Sequence record: DRR378314_2561
DNA length: 40,230 bases
Strand: one strand, 5' to 3'
In this document: positions 396 to 30,609 of the stretch, piece by piece
Layout: every line of letters begins with the position of its first letter
Numbering within the stretch: the stretch's first letter is position 1
Position numbers and translations under genes: made by a program
The notes under the pieces: generated by a model
Seen by the model: the letters and a program-made list of their open reading frames with translations, nothing else
Databases searched by the model: none
What the model was told of the DNA's origin: nothing

Positions 396-1250
396 TCAAT
401 TTCCACCAAAACCTGGAAGAACCAATAAAGGAACACTGGTTTGAGTCCCTACTTTTTTTACTATAGGTTCTCGGGTTAACCTCTCAAAAAAACCATGTGA
501 ATGTTTGGTCAGGACAACCAAATCCACTTTCAACCCTTCAATAAATTTCAAAATGGCATCCGCTACATTGGATGACATGGGAACATCGTGGGGCGTTACT
601 GGGAATTTCTTGAACCTTTCCATTAAAACTTCCTTATTGTTTTCTTGCTGTTTCGATAATTTGAATTCCTGCGCCACATAGAACATATGAATCTCCGATT
701 TCCATACTTCCATCAACTCTAGCAAAGAAAACAACATGTTTTTGGGTACAAAATGCATATAATCAGTAGGAAAGGCCAAGGATTTAAGCCTTTGGAAATT
801 AAAAGAACCAGGGACTAACAGCATTGTGCAATTGTCGATTCCGCGTATAACCTTCAGGGTGTTGCTTCCAAAAAGAAACTTATTTGATCCAGTGACTCCA
901 TGGGTCCCCATAACAATATTGTCTATATCCAGTTTTGGGATCAGCGTTTGGATGCTTTCCACCAATCCACCAGAAATGGACAATGTCTCAAAAACATGGT
1001 CTTTGTTCTTGTGGTTTTTCAGCAAATACTCTTTGATTTTATCTAGTTCACCTTTCGATTCAGCAGCCATTGAACCATAAATGTTTCCTGCCCTGGAAGT
1101 GCTCTTAAAGCCTGACACATTCTGTAATTTCGGTTCATAAGTGTGCAAAAGGTAAAATCTACATGCTAATGGCCCATACAGTTTGATGGCCGTAAAAATG
1201 GCATTCCATGCGTTTTGGGAGAAATCGGTGGGCAAAAGGATATTCTTCAT
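396..1250 (-). CDS. Universal stress protein (tandem USP domains)
   Basis: MKNILLPTDFS N-terminus, IVMGTHG..GSNT ATP-binding motif, C-terminal PLLVLP. Start moved from 1331 to ATG 1250, 7 nt after the stop of the upstream paralogue. Confidence 0.93.
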   Translation of the reverse strand: MKNILLPTDFSQNAWNAIFTAIKLYGPLACRFYLLHTYEPKLQNVSGFKSTSRAGNIYGSMAAESKGELDKIKEYLLKNHKNKDHVFETLSISGGLVESIQTLIPKLDIDNIVMGTHGVTGSNKFLFGSNTLKVIRGIDNCTMLLVPGSFNFQRLKSLAFPTDYMHFVPKNMLFSLLELMEVWKSEIHMFYVAQEFKLSKQQENNKEVLMERFKKFPVTPHDVPMSSNVADAILKFIEGLKVDLVVLTKHSHGFFERLTREPIVKKVGTQTSVPLLVLPGFGGN

Positions 1251-1257
1251 TCTGTTT

Positions 1258-2115
1258 TTATTTTGAAATCTCGGAAGTATCGGGCAGTACCAAAAAAGGT
1301 GTTTGGCAATGATATCCAACAGCATCCACATTCTGCTTCATCATAAGTCGTTCTAAAAAGGTGTGTTTTCTGTTCATCATCGCCACCAGTCCAATGTGGT
1401 TCCTTTCAATATAATCATGCACAATATTGGGCATATATTCATCCGTATTATCCGTAAAAACCACGTTCGGAATACCTTTAAGCATTTTTTTGAGATGTTC
1501 CTTGTTTTCAGATTGTGCCTTGTTAAGGTCATGGCCTTCCAAAGCATGTAGTACATGGAGGTCGACCCCAAATTTTTTGATCATATCCATGAGAGGTTTC
1601 AGCTCATTGGATTTATATTTTGACCAATAATCCGTAGGCAACAACACTTTTTTGATGTTCCTGAAACCGTAGCCGTTGGGAACCGCCAAAACGGGCACAG
1701 CTGCTTTTCTGATAACATGTACGGTATTGGAACCCAGAAAAAATTCCTTTGCACCGGTCGCACCTTGGGTTCCCATCACCACCATATCAATTTTTCTATC
1801 TTGGCAAACCTCATTGACCTCGTCGGGCAGTGTGTTGAAGGCTGACAGGATTTCCAAGGTATGCCTTGGATTGTGGTGATCGTTTTTAATCCGATCTAAT
1901 GTATTTTCCAATCCATTCAAGGAAATATCGACCCCAATGTCTGGAATGGCACTGGCCATGGGACCACCCACCATGTAATCAATTCTATAAAAAGCCGGTG
2001 TGTAAGCGTTCAATAGATAAAATGTACATTTCTCCTCCTTAAAAAGTTCCAGAGCGTAAAGGATTGCGTTCCATGCATTCTTGGAAAAATCGGTGGGCAG
2101 CAGTATTTTTTTCAT
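1258..2115 (-). CDS. Universal stress protein (tandem USP domains)
   Basis: MKKILLPTDFS, VVMGTQGATG..GSNT, PVLAVP, PFLVLP. Confidence 0.95.
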   Translation of the reverse strand: MKKILLPTDFSKNAWNAILYALELFKEEKCTFYLLNAYTPAFYRIDYMVGGPMASAIPDIGVDISLNGLENTLDRIKNDHHNPRHTLEILSAFNTLPDEVNEVCQDRKIDMVVMGTQGATGAKEFFLGSNTVHVIRKAAVPVLAVPNGYGFRNIKKVLLPTDYWSKYKSNELKPLMDMIKKFGVDLHVLHALEGHDLNKAQSENKEHLKKMLKGIPNVVFTDNTDEYMPNIVHDYIERNHIGLVAMMNRKHTFLERLMMKQNVDAVGYHCQTPFLVLPDTSEISK

Positions 2116-4677: not shown

Positions 4678-5355
4678 ATGAACCTTGTCCTTGAAACCAA
4701 AAATATCAACAAGCACTTCCATAAACCCAAGGATTTTCATGTTCTGAAAGATGTTTCCTTTAGGGTCAAAAAAGGGGAGTTTGTTTCCATTATGGGCAAA
4801 TCTGGATCTGGAAAATCCACTTTGTTGTATGTTCTTTCCACTATGGATACCGATTATAGCGGGGAATTGTATTTGGGCAAAGAATTGATTACTGGGAAAA
4901 CCCAACGTGAACTCTCCCGAATCCGTAATAAAAATATCGGTTTTGTGTTCCAATTCCACTATTTATTGTCCGAATTCAGTGTTCTGGAAAATGTGATGTT
5001 ACCCGCAAAAAAACTTGGCGAAAAATCCCCCGCCGAGATTGAACGCGATGCCCTGCATAAACTTGAAATGCTCCATATAGGTCATTTGGCCCACCAGCGG
5101 GCCTCTCGGATTTCTGGAGGGGAAAAGCAGCGCGTGGCCATTGCCCGAGCGTTGATCAACAACCCTACGATCTTGATGGGCGATGAACCCACTGGAAACT
5201 TGGACAGCCAAAACTCTGAAAACGTATTCAATATCTTCAAAAAACTCAAGGAGGAACAAGGACTTTCGCTCTTGGTGGTAACCCATGATGAGGATTTTGC
5301 CAAAAGAACCGATCGCATTATTCAATTGGAAGACGGAAGAATTGTGGCTCAATAA
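4678..5355 (+). CDS. ABC transporter ATP-binding protein (LolD/MacB-like)
   Basis: GKSGSGKST, IGFVFQFHYLL, ISGGEKQRVAIARAL, GDEPTGNLD, VVTHD. Confidence 0.95.
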   Translation: MNLVLETKNINKHFHKPKDFHVLKDVSFRVKKGEFVSIMGKSGSGKSTLLYVLSTMDTDYSGELYLGKELITGKTQRELSRIRNKNIGFVFQFHYLLSEFSVLENVMLPAKKLGEKSPAEIERDALHKLEMLHIGHLAHQRASRISGGEKQRVAIARALINNPTILMGDEPTGNLDSQNSENVFNIFKKLKEEQGLSLLVVTHDEDFAKRTDRIIQLEDGRIVAQ

Positions 5356-6200
5356 AATATGGACTTGTTTAAACTGAGCAAGGGAAGTTGGGTCTTGGAC
5401 ATCATCTGCTTTACAAAATCCTTGTGGACAAAGGAGGACGCAGTACTTTTTCTGTTCCGCTCCAACATGACCAATACATCCATTTCCCCACGTTCGGCAT
5501 ACTGCGTCAGGGCATCAGAAACATTGTCGGAATGAATCAGTTCAAACCCCAATTTTTCATACTTGACCTTTTGGAGCAGTATTTTTTGGAACCACTGCAT
5601 CTGTTCCTCACCTTTTTCCCAATCCAAGGTGTTTACATGAACTATTTTAACAAAAGCTTGATATGGACGTGCCATGCTTTTAACGAGCCAATCAATGGCA
5701 TGTATATCCGTTTCTTCAAAATCGGAAGCATAAGTTATACGCGCTATTGAAAATTTATCCGCAGTTGGTGGCACCATCAAGAAAGGACAGGGACTTTTTT
5801 TAATCATTCCCATGGTGTTGCTGCCTATTATCATATCCTTGAGTGCACTTCTGCCTTTTGTGCCCATAATGATCATTGAAGCGTCAAACTCGGTAACAGC
5901 GTCAATGATGGCATCGTTTATTATGGCATTTTCCTTTACTATTAACCGGAGCTTTGTGCTGTTTTTAAGTTGTCCCAGACGCTCTTTATAGAAATCGACC
6001 AATTTTTTGCGATTTTCTTCGAATGCTTCTTTTTCCATCTTGGCGTATGTTATGCTCAAAGGGGTCAGCAGCGCCACATTCAGATCAAACACATGGAGCA
6101 CCAACAACCTTGATTCGAGTTTTTTGCTCAGGGCATTGGCCATTTTTAGGGCCGCTTCGGAATTTTTGGAGCAATCTGTGGCGCAGAGTATGGTTCTCAT
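5349..6200 (-). CDS. Universal stress protein (tandem USP domains)
   Basis: MRTILCATDCS, IIMGTKGRS..IGSNT, CPFLMVP. Confidence 0.92.
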   Translation of the reverse strand: MRTILCATDCSKNSEAALKMANALSKKLESRLLVLHVFDLNVALLTPLSITYAKMEKEAFEENRKKLVDFYKERLGQLKNSTKLRLIVKENAIINDAIIDAVTEFDASMIIMGTKGRSALKDMIIGSNTMGMIKKSPCPFLMVPPTADKFSIARITYASDFEETDIHAIDWLVKSMARPYQAFVKIVHVNTLDWEKGEEQMQWFQKILLQKVKYEKLGFELIHSDNVSDALTQYAERGEMDVLVMLERNRKSTASSFVHKDFVKQMMSKTQLPLLSLNKSIFY

Positions 6201-7009: not shown

Positions 7010-9661
7010 ATGAGCTACAATGCCTTTGCCTTTCCATGGGAACAAGTGGTCAAAGACCTAAATAGCAATGTTGCAAAAGGATTAGGTTTCCATGAAGTAA
7101 AAATTCGTCTGGCCCATTATGGCGAAAATTATCTCCCCGCCCATGCAAGGAAAGGAAAATTGGCCATCCTCAAAGATCAATTTGCCAATCCTATTTTTTA
7201 CATTCTTTCCATAGCGGCTGTTCTGAGTTTTGTATTTAGTGAGTGGTTAGAGGCCATTACAGTCTGTATTGTCATCCTAATTACCATACTTATTGGATTT
7301 TTCATGGAACTCAGTGCGGTACGATCCCTGGAATTGCTCCGGGATATTGGACAAATGGAATGTCGTGTGATAAGATCTGGTAAGACTGTAAAAGTACCGG
7401 TCACACAGCTTGTTCCTGGAGATATTCTTACGTTTGGAATCGGGGATGTCATTGCCGCCGATGCTCGCTTGATAAGCACAGAAAACCTTGAGATGAAAGA
7501 AGCGATTCTCACAGGAGAGAGTACTCCTGTAGCAAAGGATTCCAAGACTTTAGGGCAAAACATCCCCATAACAGACCAAAAAAATATAGTCTTCAAAGGC
7601 ACATCGGTGAACAGAGGGTCGGGAAAGGCCATAGTTGTTGCCATTGGATCGGGCACAGTTTTAGGAGAAATACAGTTGCTTGGGGAGTCGGCCGAAGAAA
7701 CAGGCCACCCGTTGGATAAGAAATTGAACCAGCTCAGCAAACGTTTGGTTTGGGTCACGCTTGCCTTTGTCTTCCCGATAACCCTATTCGGGATTCTCAG
7801 GGGCCAGGATTTACTGATCATGTTGGAAACAGGAATCGCACTTGCCGTAGCCACCATTCCTGAAGGTCTTCCTGTTGTGGTCACCATTGCTTTGGCCAGA
7901 GGAATGCTAAAATTGTCCAAAAAGCAAGTGGTCATCAAAAAAATGGAAGCTGTGGAGACCCTTGGTTCAATTACCATGGTCGCTACAGATAAAACAGGGA
8001 CATTGACCGAAGATAATATGACGGTGCATACCGTTGGACTTGACTGTGGAACATTCCAGAAATTAGATCAAGGAAACGGCCAATCAATCAAAGTCCCAAC
8101 AAACAAGAGAGCATTGGAGCAGCTTGTGCGGACCAGTGTACTTTGCAACGATATAATCTTGGGTACCGATCAATCGTATTACGATTCCATTGATTTGGGA
8201 TTGCTTCGATTTGTTGAAAAGCTTGATAAAGATCCGCAGAAAATAAGAGAAGAGTTTCCAGAGGTTTATAAGTTACCTTTTGATGAGGAAATGAAGCTTA
8301 TGGCAACTGTTAACAAAACCGGTTCTTCATCTTACTCCGTTTATGTCAAGGGAGCCTTTGAGAGCATAGCTCCACTGTGCACAAAGAAATTGGACAATGG
8401 AAACATTGTCCAATTAGACAACATCCACGAATGGGAGGAATCAGTGGAACAAATGTCCTCCCAAGGACTTCGAACCATAGCCATGGCATATAAGGAAGTA
8501 GAAGGGGCAAATTTTAAAAAAGCAGAGTTACTCAACGACCTTGTTCTAATAGGAATTGTAGGTTTTATAGACCCGGCGAGGGAGGACGTGAAAGCAATCA
8601 TGGACATCTACAATAAAGCAGGAGTCAAAGTGGTCATGATGACCGGGGACCATCCCAAAACAGCGCAGAAAATTGCAGAAGATATTGGGTTATTGACCAA
8701 GGCAGAAGGAGAAAGTGCGCTGATGGAAGGAAAGGAACTGGACATTGTTAACATAAAAACAGACGAATCCAAAAAACGTTTGTTAAGCACTAAAGTGTTC
8801 GCCAGAGTCACGCCCAAACAGAAATTGGACCTCATTACATTTTTTCAAAAACAAAACCATGTCGTTGGAATGTTCGGGGACGGAATCAACGATGTACCAG
8901 CACTTATCAAATCAGACATTGGTATAGCCATGGGCAGAAGAGGTACTGAGGCGGCAAGGGAGGCCGCGGATATAATCCTAAAAGATGACCGTTTCGGAGC
9001 TGTGGAACTGGCCATCAGACAAGGTAGAGTAATCTATGAGCACATCAGACAATTTTTGGTTTATCTTTTGTCGTGTAATCTAGGGGAAATCATTATTGTG
9101 GGGGTGGCAGCCCTTTTAAACCTTCCTTCCCCTTTGTTGCCCTTACAGATTCTATTTCTGAATCTGGTAACCGATATTTTTCCCGCTCTTGCCCTAGGTT
9201 TCGGAAAAGGGGTACACGATGCAATGGACAGGCCGCCAAGAAAGTCCGGAGAACCCATTATGACACCTTTGCTTTGGAAATCGACATTTCTTTATGGCAT
9301 TTCCATAACCTGTGCCGTATTGGGCATAACACTTTATGCCAATTATCATTTACTCCTCAACCCGCAACAAATCAATAATTTGGCGTTCTACACACTCATT
9401 ATCGCACAGTTGCTCAATGTCTTCAATATGCCCAATAGACAGGTCTCGTTTCTTTTCAATGAAGTTACCAAGAATCCATGGGTATGGGGTGCCATTGTTC
9501 TGAGCCTTACCATTACGGCACTTGCTTATGTGATTCCATCCACATCCCAAGCACTTTCCTTGGTCTCATTAAATTGGGAACAACTCCAATTGTCCGTACT
9601 ATTTGGATTTGGTTCATTGGCGCTGTCCCAGATATTTAAAAAAATAGGCTTCGTGCAGTGA
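7010..9661 (+). CDS. Cation-transporting P-type ATPase, type IIA-like (CtpF-like)
   Basis: LTGES, IPEGL, DKTGTLT phosphorylation site, MMTGD, VFARVTP, GDGIND, QILFLNLVTD. Confidence 0.95.
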   Translation: MSYNAFAFPWEQVVKDLNSNVAKGLGFHEVKIRLAHYGENYLPAHARKGKLAILKDQFANPIFYILSIAAVLSFVFSEWLEAITVCIVILITILIGFFMELSAVRSLELLRDIGQMECRVIRSGKTVKVPVTQLVPGDILTFGIGDVIAADARLISTENLEMKEAILTGESTPVAKDSKTLGQNIPITDQKNIVFKGTSVNRGSGKAIVVAIGSGTVLGEIQLLGESAEETGHPLDKKLNQLSKRLVWVTLAFVFPITLFGILRGQDLLIMLETGIALAVATIPEGLPVVVTIALARGMLKLSKKQVVIKKMEAVETLGSITMVATDKTGTLTEDNMTVHTVGLDCGTFQKLDQGNGQSIKVPTNKRALEQLVRTSVLCNDIILGTDQSYYDSIDLGLLRFVEKLDKDPQKIREEFPEVYKLPFDEEMKLMATVNKTGSSSYSVYVKGAFESIAPLCTKKLDNGNIVQLDNIHEWEESVEQMSSQGLRTIAMAYKEVEGANFKKAELLNDLVLIGIVGFIDPAREDVKAIMDIYNKAGVKVVMMTGDHPKTAQKIAEDIGLLTKAEGESALMEGKELDIVNIKTDESKKRLLSTKVFARVTPKQKLDLITFFQKQNHVVGMFGDGINDVPALIKSDIGIAMGRRGTEAAREAADIILKDDRFGAVELAIRQGRVIYEHIRQFLVYLLSCNLGEIIIVGVAALLNLPSPLLPLQILFLNLVTDIFPALALGFGKGVHDAMDRPPRKSGEPIMTPLLWKSTFLYGISITCAVLGITLYANYHLLLNPQQINNLAFYTLIIAQLLNVFNMPNRQVSFLFNEVTKNPWVWGAIVLSLTITALAYVIPSTSQALSLVSLNWEQLQLSVLFGFGSLALSQIFKKIGFVQ

Positions 9662-9759
9662 ATCATATCATCAAACAGATATCATATAACTCCCTTTAAA
9701 ACATATTGATTGTCAAATATTTAAATTCATTTTATTTCGTTTTGAGGGAGCTTTAGAAA

Positions 9760-9803
9760 ATGATTTATGTCATGTCAAGGTAAAAAGTCATATATTATAT
9801 TTG
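9760..9803 (+). promoter_or_regulatory. Regulon box + -7 element for the kinase-regulator operon (autoregulation)
   Basis: ATGATTTATGTCAT 9760-9773; 22 nt; perfect TATATTTG 9796-9803. Confidence 0.85.
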
Positions 9804-9948
9804 GTTGTGTTCTTTTTATTGCTCCTTGAAATTTTTAAACGGAAAACCCTCGGTCCATAAAGATGATACTGATTCCAAAAAGAACCAAAGAAAAATCAAG
9901 GAATCCACTTGCTATATTTCACTGTTATGATTTAAAACATCTGTTTAA

Positions 9949-12519
9949 ATGAAACGGCAAAATTCCAAAGAAGAAAAAGCTTCCTCCCTTTTGTTTGAGG
10001 GTGACCGAAAGCTACGGACGTTGGTGGAAAACCTCCCGGGCATTGTATTTCGCTGTAAGAACGATTCGGACAGAACCATGCAGTTCATCAGCAATGAGTG
10101 CAAATGCGTCACAGGATATTGGCCCGAACAATTTTGCAAGTCAGATGGAATCGCTTGGGGAAGTCTGATTCACCCCATGGACAAGGATGATGTATGGAAC
10201 GCGGTACAATTGGCCTTGGGCAAAAACGAAAAGTTTCAGTTGAAATACCGGATAATAGATAAAGAGGGGAAGATTCACTGGATCAGTGAAACCGGAATTG
10301 CAGTGGAAAAAAAAGAAGGCACGGCCTATCTGGAAGGATATATGCAAGATATCACCACCCAAATCATGGGCGGCAACATCAATGTTATCAAGGAGAGGGC
10401 CTTGGATGAGGTAGGGAATGGAATCATCATAGCAAATGCGCAACTCAAACAATTTCCCATTATCCATGTCAACCAGGCTTTTGAAAGAATAACCGGTTAC
10501 TCCAAGGAAGAAGTCGTTGGAAAAAATTGTAATTTTCTTCAAAGTGATGACCGCCAGCAAAAGGAAATCCAAATCATTCGAGATGCACTCGCGACCCAAT
10601 CTCCTTGCCATGTGGAGATACGAAATTACGGGAAAGATGGGACCATGTTCTGGAATGAACTATCTATTACCCCAGTACGGAACCTCAATGGGGAAACCAC
10701 ACATTTTATAGGTATTCAAAACGACATTACGGAAAGAAAGAACCTAGAGTTTTTAAGAAAAGGCAAGAATGACATTTTTGAAATGATCATAAAAAAAAGG
10801 CCCCTGCCCGAAATTTTTGACCGTGTTCAAGAAGTGCTGGAGCAACAAATACGTATAGGTACCGTGGCAATCACTCTATATGATGATGCCAAACAAATGC
10901 CCAAGAGGGTTTCTGGAAGTAAAACACACCCTGCAATTGGCAAGGTCATGGACCAAATTTTAGCTATATCGGATTCTTGTCCCTGTATACGGGCCATACA
11001 GTCCAAAAAAAGAGCAAGGGTCGCCAATATTCTGGACGAACCTTCATGGTCCAAGTACCGGTCCGAATTGACCAAGGCTGGTTTCAAATCCATCAGTTCC
11101 TCCCCTATTTTAGATGCTGATAATCACATTCTAGCCGTTTTATCCGCTTTTTACCCTTCTGAACACCATCCTTACTTTGAAAAGGAAGAATTGGTCGATG
11201 AGATGGTCGGTCTTATCGGTTTGGCCATTGAACAAAAGAAGATTCGCGAAAAATTGCAAACGAATCAAAAGCATTTGGAGACTTATTCCAAAGGGTTGGA
11301 AAAACAAGTTGAGCAACGCAACAAAGACCTGAAAAAGATTCTGGATGAATTGACGGTAACAAATTTTGAGCTTATTGAGCAAGTTACAGATGCCAACGCT
11401 GCCAAGACAAGGGCAGAAATACAGGAAAGCATGCTTTTGGCCATCACCCAAAATTTCCCAAAAGGTGCTATTATACTGGTGGACAAGCAAATGCAAATCA
11501 ATTTTATAAAGGGTGCAGAGTTGAAACATCTCCAAGATCAGGTTTATTCAAAAAAAGCATCAACCATAATGGAATTTGATGGATTGTCAACAAGCAGTAA
11601 ACGCCTTTTGAAATATCACATGATCCAGGCCCTAAAAGGCAAACATCTAAGTTTTGAAATCGAGTATAAGAACAGTAATTATATAATCAACACCACTCCC
11701 ATATTGTCTAAAGATGGTGAAGTTACCCATGCAGTACTCGTTCTATTAAATATATCAGAGAGAAAACGAAACGAGGAGAGAATCCTTAAAAACCTAAAAA
11801 AGGAAAAGGAACTAAGTGAGCTCAAGACCAGATTCATCAGTACTGCTTCCCATGAGTTCAGGACACCTCTGAGCATTATTCTGTCTTCAACTTCATTGAT
11901 AGAAAAACTCAACGGGCCTGAAAAAACAGAAAGGCGTTTGTTCCATTTGGAAAGAATAAAAACCAATGTGGAACATCTGGTAAACATACTGAACGATTTT
12001 CTATCGCTCACCAAATTAGAGGAAGGGGAAACCAAACCCACCCCTGAATTTTTTGACTTATTACAATTGTCAAAATCCTTGATCCAGCAAATGGAAGTGA
12101 ATACAAAAAACGGTCAGAGCATTGTTTTGGAGTGCTACCATTCAAAGATGGAGATTTACCTGGATCCCAAACTGGTGCAACACATACTGCTGAACCTCAT
12201 AAGCAATGCCATTAAATATTCTGATGAAAACCAACCCATTATCCTAAGGATTGAGGAAGAATCGCAAAAGGTAAAAATCCAGGTGATCGATCAGGGTATA
12301 GGAATACCTGAAGAGGACAAACCGTATCTTTTTCGACGGTTCTTCAGGGCGAGAAATAGCATTAATGTTCAAGGGACCGGGCTTGGGCTGCACATTGTAA
12401 AATCATATACGGAATTAATGAGAGGAGAACTATGGTATGAAAGTAAGGAGAACCATGGTACCTCTTTCGAATTAAAGTTTCCTAAACACTATAAAAATGA
12501 AAAAAGTATTGGTAATTGA
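9949..12519 (+). CDS. Cytoplasmic sensor histidine kinase: PAS - LOV-type PAS - GAF - coiled coil - PAS-like - HisKA - HATPase
   Basis: No TM segment; GKNCNFLQ..RNYGKDGTMFWN..FIGIQND; H-box ASHEFRTPL; N-box NLISNAIKYS; DQGIGI; GTGLGL. Confidence 0.93.
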   Translation: MKRQNSKEEKASSLLFEGDRKLRTLVENLPGIVFRCKNDSDRTMQFISNECKCVTGYWPEQFCKSDGIAWGSLIHPMDKDDVWNAVQLALGKNEKFQLKYRIIDKEGKIHWISETGIAVEKKEGTAYLEGYMQDITTQIMGGNINVIKERALDEVGNGIIIANAQLKQFPIIHVNQAFERITGYSKEEVVGKNCNFLQSDDRQQKEIQIIRDALATQSPCHVEIRNYGKDGTMFWNELSITPVRNLNGETTHFIGIQNDITERKNLEFLRKGKNDIFEMIIKKRPLPEIFDRVQEVLEQQIRIGTVAITLYDDAKQMPKRVSGSKTHPAIGKVMDQILAISDSCPCIRAIQSKKRARVANILDEPSWSKYRSELTKAGFKSISSSPILDADNHILAVLSAFYPSEHHPYFEKEELVDEMVGLIGLAIEQKKIREKLQTNQKHLETYSKGLEKQVEQRNKDLKKILDELTVTNFELIEQVTDANAAKTRAEIQESMLLAITQNFPKGAIILVDKQMQINFIKGAELKHLQDQVYSKKASTIMEFDGLSTSSKRLLKYHMIQALKGKHLSFEIEYKNSNYIINTTPILSKDGEVTHAVLVLLNISERKRNEERILKNLKKEKELSELKTRFISTASHEFRTPLSIILSSTSLIEKLNGPEKTERRLFHLERIKTNVEHLVNILNDFLSLTKLEEGETKPTPEFFDLLQLSKSLIQQMEVNTKNGQSIVLECYHSKMEIYLDPKLVQHILLNLISNAIKYSDENQPIILRIEEESQKVKIQVIDQGIGIPEEDKPYLFRRFFRARNSINVQGTGLGLHIVKSYTELMRGELWYESKENHGTSFELKFPKHYKNEKSIGN

Positions 12520-13576
12520 AGACAACAGGGAGGTCCGCGAGAACACGGTGGAAATTCTTGAGTTGGCCAACTATAACGTAATAGCTGCGGCCAATGGCAG
12601 GGCAGGCATCCAAATGGCCATGGAACATCTACCCGATATCATCATCAGCGACATAGTAATGCCCGAAGCAAATGGATATACCGTACTGGAAGTCTTGAGC
12701 CAAAACAGCGATACAGCAAACATTCCCTTTATTTTTTTAAGCGCCAAAGACAAGAAGGAAGATATAAGAATGGGGATGAGCCTTGGAGCCGATGATTATA
12801 TTTATAAACCTTATCGGTCACAGGAACTATTGGATGCCGTGGAAATGCGGATAAAGAAACATAACTTTATCCAGCAAAAGTTTTCAAAGACCCCAGTCGG
12901 CATCAACCATTTTTTTAAGGAGGTATCCGAATATCTGGGAAAAGAACTCATTTCCAAAGAAAGGGAACCCCAACTTTTTAAGGATAGGGAGAGAATCTAT
13001 CAAGAAGGGAACGCTGCACATTATCTCTATTTTATAGAAGATGGAAACATAAAGACTTTTAGGGGCACGGAAAGCGGCAAAGAAATGATTACCGGACTAT
13101 ATGGGCCCGGGGACTTTGTAGGGCAACTATCTTTGTTGGGAAGTGGCGGCACTTATCTAGAAACGGCCATCGTAATGGAACATGCCAAAGTACTCGGCAT
13201 TCCCAAGGAAGATTTTATTCACCTGGTATACCAGGACAAGGAAGTGGCGAATAAATTCCTTGGCATTATCTCCAACAATATGATCGACCTACAAGGAAAA
13301 TTGATAGACATCGCCTATTCATCTGTGGATCGGCGGGCAGCAAAAGCCCTGCTGGAACTTCACGAAAAGGGCATCCTTAAAGATGAGCATCATAAAGGTG
13401 TGGATATGCTTCGGGAAGATTTTGCCTCTTTGATCGGTGTAGCCAAGGAAACCGCCATCAGGACACTTACCAAATTCAGGGAAATTGGTCTTGTAGGTAC
13501 TGATAAAAAGAGGAAACTTACCATATTGGATATTGACCGTTTAAAACGTATCGCAGATTTTGAAGGTATGCTTTGA
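12497..13576 (+). CDS. Response regulator with receiver + Crp/Fnr-type effector and HTH domain
   Basis: VIED, PDIIISD(52), FLSAK, YIYKP; Crp beta-roll IYQEG..LYFIEDGNIK..GDFVG; HTH REDFASLIGVAKETAIRTL; overlaps kinase stop. Confidence 0.93.
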   Translation: MKKVLVIEDNREVRENTVEILELANYNVIAAANGRAGIQMAMEHLPDIIISDIVMPEANGYTVLEVLSQNSDTANIPFIFLSAKDKKEDIRMGMSLGADDYIYKPYRSQELLDAVEMRIKKHNFIQQKFSKTPVGINHFFKEVSEYLGKELISKEREPQLFKDRERIYQEGNAAHYLYFIEDGNIKTFRGTESGKEMITGLYGPGDFVGQLSLLGSGGTYLETAIVMEHAKVLGIPKEDFIHLVYQDKEVANKFLGIISNNMIDLQGKLIDIAYSSVDRRAAKALLELHEKGILKDEHHKGVDMLREDFASLIGVAKETAIRTLTKFREIGLVGTDKKRKLTILDIDRLKRIADFEGML

Positions 13577-20060: not shown

Positions 20061-20471
20061 CTACATATCAAAAACTACATGGCTTTCCCAAATCTTTTCT
20101 TCATTCCTTCTCACACTTGTAGCAAGATACGAAACCCCTCTTATTCTTTCATCAAAGCTCCCCAACCATTTACCATAGAGTTGGGCCGAAATGCTATTCT
20201 CCGAAAACTCGGAAAAATAAACATTACAGAAAAGGGTCTTCTGCATATAGGTAAGGGAAAGAACGTCCGAGAGGAAATCAATCAGGAGGTCGGTCGCATT
20301 ATCAGTGGAAATCTCAATGCACATCTGACAGTCAAAATGACCGACGTTGTCACAGCCTCCCTTTTTCAGGATATCGTTCATGATTCCAAGATTATCCTTT
20401 AAAAGTATCTTAAGCGTAGGTGCCAGTACCTTTATTTCAATACCTGCCGTATGTTGTACCAACCCATTCAT
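20061..20471 (-). CDS. Archease family protein (degenerate)
   Basis: HTAG (canonical HTAD), LLIDFLSDVL, IRGVSYL (canonical IKAVTYH), terminal VFDM. Confidence 0.75.
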   Translation of the reverse strand: MNGLVQHTAGIEIKVLAPTLKILLKDNLGIMNDILKKGGCDNVGHFDCQMCIEISTDNATDLLIDFLSDVLSLTYMQKTLFCNVYFSEFSENSISAQLYGKWLGSFDERIRGVSYLATSVRRNEEKIWESHVVFDM

Positions 20472-29322: not shown

Positions 29323-29465
29323 ACAAACCAATAAGAACGCACTCCCCCCCCCGTTACTTTTAGATATAGGCGGAAGATTTTCCAAAGGCTACATCAATGG
29401 ATGGAAGCCTAGATTGATAAAAACAACAGCCTTCCCAAATAGAGTCTGACAAAACCGCTGAATAT

Positions 29466-29672
29466 TCAGTGAAATATGTGTTTGATTTTTCGGTAAAGTT
29501 TAGCAAATAAAATCATGGGCAATTCACTTTTCAACATTGAAAGTCCAAGATTTTGTTGGCCCAAGGTCAGATTGAGTTTCATTTTTTCCACCTCAATTTG
29601 TCTTTTGAGCTTTAGAATTTTTAATCTTTGGTCTATATCCGAAAAAGAATGGTACCTGGCCTTCATTTTCAA
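29466..29672 (-). CDS. Small hypothetical protein (DUF6327-like)
   Basis: YHSFSDIDQRLKILKLKRQIE; overlaps upstream stop. Confidence 0.65.
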   Translation of the reverse strand: MKMKARYHSFSDIDQRLKILKLKRQIEVEKMKLNLTLGQQNLGLSMLKSELPMILFAKLYRKIKHIFH

Positions 29673-30010
29673 TCAAAATAGTATATGGAAAATCTTTTGA
29701 TCAAAGGACTGCTCAATTTATCCCTCAAAAGGGCATATAATCCAATGAGAAGCACATAGAACAACCCTACAACCACAAATCCAAGGACCATACTGTCAAA
29801 AACAACTCCCAAACCATAGGAAACGGCTATGGAAAAAAGCAACAAGGCCAAAAACAACAAAGCCGATACGATGAACCACCCCAGAATATGGTCCATGAGA
29901 CGCATCAATATCTTAAAGACCTTCAGTTCGTAGTACTCCCGTGTTTGCTCTACATAGGCATGTATGCTCTCATCTGTATCCCTCAAATTTTCCTTTAAGT
30001 CCTGAAACAT
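29669..30010 (-). CDS. Two-TM membrane protein (holin-like/YqjE-like)
   Basis: AYVEQTREYYELK followed by two hydrophobic helices. Confidence 0.75.
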   Translation of the reverse strand: MFQDLKENLRDTDESIHAYVEQTREYYELKVFKILMRLMDHILGWFIVSALLFLALLLFSIAVSYGLGVVFDSMVLGFVVVGLFYVLLIGLYALLRDKLSSPLIKRFSIYYFD

Positions 30011-30018
30011 ATCAAAAT

Positions 30019-30348
30019 CTACTTTTGTAACCGTTCATTTTTCTTTTTGAGCTCTTCCAATTTATACTCCAATGAATCTATGATATCCTCGGCCTTATAG
30101 CTCATATTGGATATCACATCTTCAAGTTTGTCTTCAATTTTCTTTCTCCTTTCATGCACACTTTGGGAGAGTTCGTCCACTGCATGGGAAGCCTTCTCGG
30201 ATATGTCATGGGTAACATCCTGGGCTTTGCGCTTAATTTTCTCCCTGGTTTCTTTTCCTTTATCCGGAGCAAAAAGTATCCCAATTCCCGCTCCAACAAT
30301 GGTCCCTGCCAATAGGGCCAAGACTATATCTCCGTTTCTGGTTGCCAT
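30019..30348 (-). CDS. YtxH domain protein
   Basis: LLAGTIVGAGIGILFAPDKGKETREKI + charged coiled coil. Confidence 0.9.
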   Translation of the reverse strand: MATRNGDIVLALLAGTIVGAGIGILFAPDKGKETREKIKRKAQDVTHDISEKASHAVDELSQSVHERRKKIEDKLEDVISNMSYKAEDIIDSLEYKLEELKKKNERLQK

Positions 30349-30374
30349 ATGATCAATTTTTATCGTTTATATTG

Positions 30375-30418
30375 TAAAAGTAGCCCAACAACCTATCATT
30401 TCTGATGATATAGATCAG
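30375..30418 (-). promoter_or_regulatory. Regulon box + -7 element for ytxH operon
   Basis: ATGATATAGATCAG 30405-30418; 22 nt; TACTTTTA on minus strand 30375-30382. Confidence 0.8.
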
Positions 30419-30524
30419 TTGTCCCGTACTTTAAAAAATATTGCAACAAAAAAGAGAGAAACCAACTCTTTATTGATAACCAACACTTTATTAAAGAATC
30501 CCATGGCCTTAAATGTTCACCAAC

Positions 30525-30568
30525 GTGACGACAATCATTTCACCAAAAATGTAAACCATGCAATTTTG
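30525..30568 (+). promoter_or_regulatory. Regulon box + -7 element
   Basis: GTGACGACAATCAT 30525-30538; 22 nt; CAATTTTG 30561-30568. Confidence 0.72.
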
Positions 30569-30609
30569 AACGAACAACCCTGACCCAATGCGGGGTAAAA
30601 ACTAAAGCC

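Follow-up and report, generated by a model that had tools for sequence, protein, structure and literature searches.

In the Bacillus subtilis LOV protein YtvA, R63 stands next to the reactive Cys and takes part in a hydrogen-bond network with the terminal phosphate of flavin mononucleotide (FMN) and Asp36 (PMC4161478). With the R63K exchange, the lifetime of the adduct in wet E. coli cells was 312 s instead of 2100 s, and stability and interdomain signalling were unimpaired; R58K in Chlamydomonas phot-LOV1 (Cr-LOV1) accelerated recovery, which took about 70 s instead of 200 s (PMC4161478). In PpSB1-LOV, R54, R61, R66 and R70 sit on the FMN phosphate and tune dark recovery, which became 280-fold faster when R61 and R66 were mutated; LOV apoprotein accepts FMN, flavin adenine dinucleotide (FAD), riboflavin or lumichrome (PMC5314338). 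The conserved residues of LOV domains are G59, N61, C62, R63, F64, L65, Q66, N94, N104 and Q123 (PMC4682037). In this work, we analyzed a LOV domain that has Asn in place of R63. It is part of an 856-residue sensor histidine kinase, encoded by the open reading frame (ORF) 9949..12519 on the plus strand in the ORF list of sequence record DRR378314_2561, a DNA stretch of 40,230 nucleotides that is called the window here. Residues ~144–281 of this kinase, its second PAS domain (PAS2), probably form a functional LOV photosensor that would bind a flavin, most likely FMN. As judged from the comparison of homologs, the Arg-to-Asn exchange probably reshaped the phosphate end of the pocket throughout the lineage and is not a defect. 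PAS2 and its pocket residues are located in the window as follows.

10378..10791, plus strand: LOV domain, with an A'alpha cap at residues 144–154, a core at 158–259 and a Jalpha-like helix at 261–281 (phmmer, Pfam, AF2 and Foldseek)
10519..10542, plus strand: LOV signature GKNCNFLQ, residues 191–198, aligned to YtvA GKNCRFLQ
10552..10581, plus strand: Ealpha–Falpha loop and start of Falpha with R202 and R211, candidate phosphate ligands (alignment to 7r5n and YtvA)
10624..10626, plus strand: N226 (RNY), flavin-ring contact, equivalent to YtvA N94, present in 22/22 orthologs
10654..10656, plus strand: N236 (FWN), flavin-ring contact, equivalent to YtvA N104, present in 22/22 orthologs
10717..10719, plus strand: Q257 (GIQ), signalling Gln, equivalent to YtvA Q123; Gln in 21/22 orthologs and Leu in one

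When all PDB chains were searched by phmmer with residues 140–272, YtvA was the best match (E=2.8e-34). The search reached 168 PDB sequences at E<=0.001, and among the matches listed all 60 of 60 were LOV proteins or LOV fusions; matches named 'blue-light-activated histidine kinase' had E~1e-28. Pfam placed PAS_9 over residues 158–262 (E=2.6e-30). An AlphaFold2 (AF2) model of the LOV domain alone (pLDDT 90.8, pTM 0.81) showed the cap and the C-terminal helix, and the top Foldseek matches of this model were all LOV structures with TM 0.84–0.88, for example, MrLOVe (9vf7, query TM 0.87), YF1 (4gcz, 0.88) and PpSB2-LOV (7a6p, 0.86), with PpSB1-LOV, YtvA and Brucella LOV-HK as further matches. The structural match also covered the cap at the N terminus and the Jalpha-type helix at the C terminus, which are typical of dimeric bacterial LOV sensors. 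PAS2 hence combines a PAS fold with significant similarity to solved LOVs, the mark of the LOV subfamily, and is, by homology and predicted structure, a LOV domain. This agrees with the sequence-only reading of the window, which had called it LOV-type.

YtvA (2pr5, 2pr6, 2mwg) and its derivative in YF1 (4gcz) are the closest by sequence, with 45–48% identity in Foldseek and the same fold including Jalpha, and GKNC-FLQ, R79, N94, N104 and Q123 of YtvA are common to both domains. In the phmmer alignment, with YtvA residue numbers counted from the alignment coordinates, the pairs are C194/C62, N195/R63, R211/R79, N226/N94, N236/N104 and Q257/Q123. The homologues of the adduct Cys, the flavin-ring Asn pair, the signalling Gln and a second phosphate Arg were thus identified correctly in the sequence-only reading, and all positions that it named (GKNCNFLQ at 10519–10542, C194, R211, N226, N236, Q257 and a CPC motif at 344–346) were found again. 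The codon of C194, which occupies the place of the adduct-forming YtvA C62, is TGT at 10528–10530. Of the ten conserved LOV residues, nine are present, with G191, N193, F196, L197, Q198, N226, N236 and Q257 beside C194; we take N193 to be the ribityl contact of canonical LOVs. The sole exception is the equivalent of the phosphate-binding R63, where the domain has N195 (codon AAT at 10531–10533), as the earlier reading had also stated. Further, YtvA has D36 where the window LOV has Q168. The two proteins differ in their output as well: YtvA has a STAS output and no kinase, whereas the window LOV lies between a PAS and a GAF domain, ~370 residues ahead of the phospho-accepting His. YF1 demonstrates that a LOV of the YtvA type is able to drive a HisKA kinase via a helical linker.

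Our ortholog set comprised 22 proteins with the same architecture and the domain present, 98–46% identical to the kinase, from Flagellimonas, Muricauda/Allomuricauda and Poritiphilus as well as from metagenomes. C194 is kept in 21 of these 22, and F196, L197 and Q198 are invariant. The LOV pocket is under purifying selection across the 22 orthologs. In a 20-sequence alignment, residues 158–261 contained 29 invariant columns and residues 262–470 only five; by this measure, no other part of the sensor region is as well conserved as the LOV domain. One could argue that it is vestigial, or a purely structural PAS without cofactor, and that the real inputs enter through PAS1, GAF or PAS3, as the kinase has these three other sensor-type domains and as both Cys and Arg are lost in parts of the family. 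The strong conservation of the LOV relative to the residues behind it speaks against such a role, as do the flavin-ring residues, which are invariant even in Cys-less relatives, and we regard this explanation as very improbable.

Outside the signature, the clade departs from the LOV consensus at D163, which changed to Asn, and at F169. Position 163 is Asp in 90% of 166 domains with the canonical NCR sequence and Asn in 73% of 22 clade rows. Two residues are limited to the window protein and its nearest twins: H173 (10465–10467), at a position with Tyr in 95% of the clade and in 74% of canonical LOVs, and G228 (10630–10632), at a position with Arg or Lys in the others.

The variant signature reported in the sequence-only reading is real, but it is not peculiar to the window gene; it is the rule in a flavobacterial clade. 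Position 195 is Asn in 20 of the 22 orthologs, Phe in one and Asp in one. NCNFLQ also occurs in kinases of ~1,090–1,210 residues of Winogradskyella- and Psychroserpens-type proteins. For a broader view, the 133-residue LOV query was run against a representative library of 1.84 billion proteins, and the 150 best of ~4,000 proteins (E<=1e-30) were inspected, counting as LOV-like the domains with the Cys and both Asn present. The residue after the Cys in 110 such domains was Arg in 100, Lys in 5, Ser in 3, Thr in 1 and Asn in 1; ranking by whole-protein score biases this census toward giant multi-PAS proteins, and it is rough and gives no true Asn frequency. Similarly, 68 Cys-bearing LOV domains from 80 genome loci had Arg in 60 cases, Lys in 4, Asn in 2 and Ser in 2. 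Judged from these counts, Asn after the Cys is uncommon overall and has become fixed in a single flavobacterial lineage. In a literature search of PMC texts under Creative Commons licenses and of bioRxiv, no paper with the strings NCNFLQ or NCK/S/Q/H/T/D-FLQ was found, with earlier notice elsewhere being possible, and no paper connecting LOV domains with Flagellimonas or Muricauda was among the search results.

The isolate Muricauda sp. NFXS6 (locus L001) encodes a 97%-identical kinase with the same signature but a synonymous Cys codon, TGC, and its whole neighborhood is syntenic at 97–100% identity. An assembly or sequencing error behind N195 was ruled out by the agreement of L001 and the ortholog P0002. 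The ancestry of the exchange was followed in a quick maximum likelihood tree of 190 LOV domains (113 columns, with the trait columns removed), in which many forks were unresolved. A 26-row group including the window (SH-aLRT 86) had, at the Cys position and the following one, CN in 21 rows, YN in 3, CD in 1 and CF in 1. A group of 14 rows (support 100) consisted of 7 CN and 7 Cys-less rows, and one of 18 rows (support 96) was mostly CR, plus 3 CQ and 1 CK. The ~625-residue flavobacterial kinases with canonical NCRFLQ formed a separate group of 41 rows. The Arg may have been lost once or repeatedly, with eight changes on the best tree and at least three forced by well-supported branches. Within the clade, this distribution indicates that Asn is retained and not drifting.

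How the pocket might hold the FMN phosphate with Asn in this place can be judged from the other phosphate positions. R202 aligns with the PpSB1-type R61, and R211 with YtvA R79 and PpSB1 R70. Of the 22 orthologs, 19 have Arg at position 202 and 15 at position 211, and only one is without a basic residue at both positions. The Pseudomonas short LOVs (PpSB1-LOV, PpSB2-LOV, PF5-LOV and W619_1-LOV), which are among the top structural matches (TM 0.84–0.86), likewise have Arg at Cys+8 (R61 type) and Cys+17 (R70 type), in the places of R202 and R211; unlike the window LOV, they keep R54 directly after the Cys and stand alone with no effector. Arg at position 202 is found in 25 of 30 NCN domains versus 86 of 224 NCR domains. 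In the column of YtvA D36, Asp is present in 131 of 224 NCR domains, whereas the NCN domains have Gln, Gly or Asn, with Asp outside the five commonest residues in the 30 NCN domains. These contrasts are suggestive of a pocket that was remodelled as a unit; that the changes compensate for the lost Arg is hypothesis only. Comparing phylogenetically independent pairs, we found no significant association between Arg-195 loss and positions 168, 202, 211 or 194, in a test that was underpowered with only four usable, supported pairs (median sign-test p 0.5 for position 168 and 1 for 202, 211 and 194). The metagenome ortholog P0007 (851 residues) has N195, C202 and G211, i.e., no Arg at the three phosphate positions, and keeps the Cys and the flavin-ring residues.

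Replacement of the Arg, together with the loss of its acidic partner, might also have shifted the preference of the pocket from FMN to FAD or to riboflavin, which has no phosphate. The Arg after the Cys touches the FMN phosphate (PMC4161478, PMC5314338), and apoproteins of the LOV type can take FMN, FAD, riboflavin and lumichrome (PMC5314338). The D36 equivalent is Q168 in the window LOV, and Asp is uncommon in this column of the NCN domains; furthermore, R211 is also gone in 7 of the 22 orthologs, one of which is without all three arginines. However, R202 and R211 are kept in the window protein and in most orthologs, a finding that would be difficult to account for if there were no phosphate to bind. 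Whether the acidic partner is lost depends moreover on the alignment, given that the Asp of some orthologs stands at 167, one column before, and no co-variation was demonstrable beyond shared ancestry. We hence consider a switch of cofactor rather doubtful. The altered flavin preference proposed in the sequence-only reading found no direct support; because R202 and R211 are retained, binding of FMN is favored over that of another flavin.

The Cys itself is less conserved in the wider family. NYNFLQ occurs within the window's own clade, in F. halotolerans (L003, P0004) and in an Allomuricauda metagenome-assembled genome (L002). In both loci, a single G-to-A change from TGC turned Cys into Tyr, and the rest of the pocket is intact (about 10571–10594 of L002 and L003). 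Among the kinases that adjoin the same type of regulator, those of Gelidibacter (L004) and of one Aequorivita (L005) have Ser at the Cys site, and that of a second Aequorivita (L006) has Gly; these kinases, at about 9540–12890 of their loci, have Arg, Asp or Gln after the lost Cys. In related metagenome proteins, the site holds Ser, Ile or Lys, and in P0026, outside that group, it holds Phe. All Cys-less relatives keep N226, N236 and Q257. From this it follows that the flavin-ring contacts are invariant and that Cys-adduct photochemistry is optional. The conserved property of the kinase family, as far as sequences tell, would be flavin binding, and Cys photochemistry appears dispensable in some lineages. 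Such a behavior has precedents, since Cys-less LOV proteins, natural as well as engineered, signal through (photo)reduction of the flavin to the neutral semiquinone (PMC4682037).

The kinase might thus be mainly a sensor of flavin redox state, responding to oxygen or reductant in the way of NifL or Cys-less LOVs, with a nonessential Cys and a hypoxia or stress regulon under an FNR/FixK-like regulator. The relatives just described, with Tyr, Ser, Gly, Ile, Lys or Phe for Cys and an unchanged N226, N236 and Q257, fit this idea. Signalling by chemical reduction or photoreduction to the neutral semiquinone is documented for Cys-less LOVs, and BAT-LOV and the NifL PAS1 are likewise flavin-binding PAS domains that signal via flavin reduction (PMC4682037). 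The LOV region also reached 107 bits against the NCBIfam NifL model, to which it contributed the score (cutoff 242). Two models of light sensors nevertheless outscored NifL: YtvA_fam (NF052652) with 145 bits (cutoff 250; residues 149–272 only, on profile positions 3–126) and the Brucella-type blue-light-activated histidine kinase (NF052306) with 112 bits (cutoff 450; LOV part only). All three scores are below the cutoffs, and the kinase, having no STAS domain, also lacks the YtvA-family architecture. Unlike the Cys-less proteins, the window protein and 21 of 22 orthologs have the Cys, and the best solved relatives are all photocycling LOVs. We therefore think it unlikely, albeit worth keeping in view, that redox is the main input. 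Light and redox sensing are not mutually exclusive. For the window protein, with its Cys retained, adduct-based light sensing is the most likely mode. The sequence-only reading had suggested blue light or flavin redox state as input, a fair alternative given the relatives that lose the Cys and keep the flavin-ring residues.

The LOV domain is embedded in an array of sensor modules. The kinase gene has the following parts.

9949..12519, plus strand: soluble multi-sensor histidine kinase, PAS1–LOV–GAF–long helix–PAS3–HisKA–HATPase_c (Pfam and AF2)
10036..10350, plus strand: PAS1, residues ~30–134 (Pfam PAS_3 at 46–127, E=6.9e-30; AF2 strands and helices at 32–134)
10801..11232, plus strand: GAF domain, residues 285–428, containing C344-P-C346 (Pfam GAF_2, E=1.5e-8)
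11389..11751, plus strand: third PAS-like fold (PAS3), residues ~481–601, seen as a helix-strand pattern in AF2 and undetected by Pfam
11824..12486, plus strand: transmitter, HisKA with H635 and HATPase_c with N, G1 and G2 boxes (Pfam)

Orthologs of the kinase with 98–46% identity are found in Flagellimonas/Muricauda. Pfam assigned PAS_3 (46–127), PAS_9 (158–262), GAF (285–428), HisKA (626–693, E=8e-14) and HATPase_c (739–846, E=6.3e-29). The AF2 model of the full-length kinase (mean pLDDT 76.3, pTM 0.37) has the cap helix 144–154 ahead of the second PAS core and helix 261–281 behind it, a very long helix 410–474 beyond the GAF domain and an unbroken helix 603–653 that runs into the phospho-accepting H635. 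No membrane segment was seen in this model, and hence the kinase looks like a soluble multi-sensor protein. Invariant columns in the 20 sequences included S634, H635, E636, F637, R638 and P640, N749 and N753, D781, G783 and G785, and G809, T810, G811, L812, G813 and L814. With the H-box His and the N, G1 and G2 boxes, it has the equipment of a HisKA-type kinase, and the transmitter is predicted to be competent. That the gene is a pseudogene was ruled out by the intact ORF and the complete kinase boxes.

The sequence-only reading had also proposed heme- or Cys-based sensing for PAS1 and the CPC motif of the GAF domain, for which our analyses gave no support. C51 of PAS1 is conserved in the aligned homologs, and C53 is limited to the window protein and its 98% twin; C344 of the GAF domain is found in 20 of 23 and C346 in 16 of 23 homologs, so that C53 and C346 are poorly conserved. 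Solved relatives were not informative either, as a search of the PDB sequences with PAS1 gave two weak matches only (3mr0, E=1.7e-4) and one with the GAF domain no match at E<=0.01. PAS1 is not essential to the kinase family because three proteins of 750–753 residues from Flagellimonas relatives (P0021, P0023 and P0024) are without it; they begin at the LOV domain and keep NCNFLQ.

The kinase gene is followed immediately by a regulator gene, and the window contains copies of a palindrome, ATGAT-N4-ATCAT, that could be operators.

12497..13576, plus strand: presumed cognate response regulator of 359 residues, with a receiver (REC) domain, a cyclic-nucleotide-binding (cNMP-binding) domain and a Crp-type helix-turn-helix (HTH); its first 23 nt overlap the end of the kinase ORF
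9760..9773, plus strand: copy, with one mismatch, of the palindrome ATGATnnnnATCAT, 182 nt upstream of the kinase start
9927–9940: second copy with one mismatch upstream of the kinase
2204, 6332, 9760, 9927, 16821, 18537, 18570, 22130, 24755, 27509, 28109, 30405, 31301 and 32544: start positions of the intergenic 14-nt palindromes

Pfam found Response_reg (E=1.2e-25), cNMP_binding (E=1.5e-18) and HTH_Crp_2 (E=2.1e-12) in the regulator, i.e., REC, cNMP-binding domain and Crp-type HTH in one chain. Its C-terminal half matched NCBIfam FixK with E=4.8e-17, under the model cutoff. The regulator is the sole Crp-family protein among the window ORFs of >=120 residues. Kinase and regulator genes adjoined each other in 13 of 14 flavobacterial loci examined, with locus L047, which gave no matches, as the exception; such pairs were also present in genera with a canonical NCRFLQ kinase, and Usp genes, often together with Hsp20 genes, are neighbors of the pair. 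In the window, 17 palindrome copies with <=1 mismatch were counted versus 3.3 expected, a number reached in 0 of 100 shuffles. Fourteen of the 17 are intergenic, in a window with about 15% intergenic DNA, and these lie mostly 50–200 nt upstream of genes. They precede Usp2/HlyD, Usp3/Hsp20, the kinase itself, two small ORFs, a hydrolase–PRTase pair, PPS, DUF2267/baeRF, FMN_bind and flavodoxin-like genes, and FtsH. Exact copies occurred in 14 of 80 loci, 13 of which are among the 24 loci of Flavobacteriaceae, with AT-richness as a confounder. They lie directly upstream of the Usp genes that adjoin the regulator in L012, L032 and L004, and upstream of the kinase in L002 and L003 (9815–9828, with the kinase at 10001).

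The boxes resemble, in our estimation, the FNR-type palindrome. From their proximity and this family resemblance, they are likely the operator of the REC-cNMP-Crp regulator. Usp and Hsp20 genes as targets are presumably typical of hypoxia or stationary-phase regulons. These likenesses could also be read in favor of a redox-driven system, together with the FixK-like DNA-binding half of the regulator.

We may thus outline how the kinase would work as the photosensor that we prefer. Blue light would drive the formation of an adduct between C194 and C4a of the flavin, and protonation of N5 would be read by Q257 and relayed via the beta-sheet and the A'alpha and Jalpha helices. The signal could then run down the helical spine of GAF, long helix and PAS3 to the HisKA/HATPase transmitter and shift the phosphorylation of the overlapping REC-cNMP-Crp regulator, which would act at the FNR-like ATGAT-N4-ATCAT boxes before Usp, Hsp20 and other stress genes. 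R211 and R202 would hold the phosphate, with N195 as a weaker hydrogen-bond partner. By analogy with YtvA R63K and Cr-LOV1 R58K, this might shorten the adduct lifetime and result in a faster-resetting sensor. The analysis establishes the fold and its residues, their conservation, the pairing of the two genes and the enrichment of the palindrome; flavin binding, photocycle, kinetic effect, phosphotransfer and the link between boxes and regulator are what we infer here. Taken together, the kinase is a probable blue-light input to a stress regulon and possibly a redox input as well.

Several points weigh against this outline. Flavin binding and photocycle are deduced from homology, and the boxes are connected with the regulator by proximity and family resemblance. 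The kinetic prediction builds on mutants from Arg to Lys, not from Arg to Asn. In P0007, none of positions 195, 202 and 211 is Arg, and the contrasts between Arg loss and R202 or the D36 equivalent are inseparable from shared ancestry. The adduct Cys is dispensable in the family, and because relatives have lost it, adduct-driven light cannot be the universal input of the system.

Natural LOV histidine kinases offer a comparison for this arrangement. Brucella LOV-HK (3t50/6ph4) resembles the window kinase in that a LOV domain feeds a histidine kinase with a stress-linked output. The alphaproteobacterial LOV kinases differ in their HWE/HisKA_2 type, the PhyR/EcfG partner switch and a canonical NCRFLQ, whereas the window kinase, from Flavobacteriaceae, has HisKA, NCNFLQ, a PAS/GAF/PAS array and a REC-cNMP-Crp regulator. 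As further natural LOV histidine kinases we would count Caulobacter LovK and Erythrobacter EL346 and EL368. LOV proteins are also linked to the general stress response in B. subtilis, through YtvA, and in Caulobacter, through LovK. LOV proteins that feed general stress responses have been published for Brucella and Erythrobacter. The sequence-only reading had called a light-gated regulon of this kind unusual; since LOV control of stress responses is published, it is not unusual in concept.

The genes around the kinase have the character of a stress locus. Three Usp proteins of 283–311 residues (window 396–2115 and 5349–6200) have about twice the length of a Usp domain, with one Pfam stretch each. 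Clustered with their genes are those for Hsp20, PPS, PRTase, archease, two DUF2267 proteins, a baeRF-family protein and FtsH. A cluster of Usp, Hsp20, PPS, DUF2267 and FtsH recalls, to our mind, regulons of the hypoxia or dormancy type. In the window and in L001, Hsp20 is separated from the kinase by a P-type ATPase (7010–9661) and Usp3 (5349–6200); neither is found at that position in L002 and L003, which have Hsp20 immediately before the kinase. The gene content of the stress locus hence varies among close species. The archease ORF (20061–20471, minus strand) is 74% identical to that of L001 (20119), compared with 97–100% for the flanking genes, which may reflect local replacement or an artefact of ORF-fragment matching. 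At 29323–30609, 1.3 kb are free of any ORF of >=120 residues, the longest such gap in the window, with one box with one mismatch at 30405.

In general, the window LOV is, by its sequence, a natural variant of a well-known photoreceptor, which extends known principles and does not represent a new kind of system. A more far-reaching interpretation would be that a clade of Flavobacteriaceae rebuilt the phosphate end of its LOV pocket for a different flavin (e.g., riboflavin), photocycle or redox potential and thereby placed a light-and-redox gate on a dormancy-like Usp/Hsp20 regulon via a phosphorylation-controlled FNR/Crp-type regulator. To our knowledge, such a gate is undescribed for LOV kinases; we think this interpretation quite unlikely. 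Optogenetics relies chiefly on LOV domains, whose adduct lifetime is adjusted through mutations in the pocket. The clade-wide, natural swap of the 'superconserved' Arg hence provides ready-made variants to probe its role in flavin choice and photocycle speed. Depending on the strictness of the motif, mining screens for GXNCRFLQ (e.g., PMC12202551) could miss sequences of the NCNFLQ type. For the Flavobacteriaceae themselves, the LOV kinase, the REC-cNMP-Crp regulator and the FNR-like boxes before Usp and Hsp20 genes make up a conserved, uncharacterized module through which abundant marine heterotrophs would couple their stress physiology to light or redox state.

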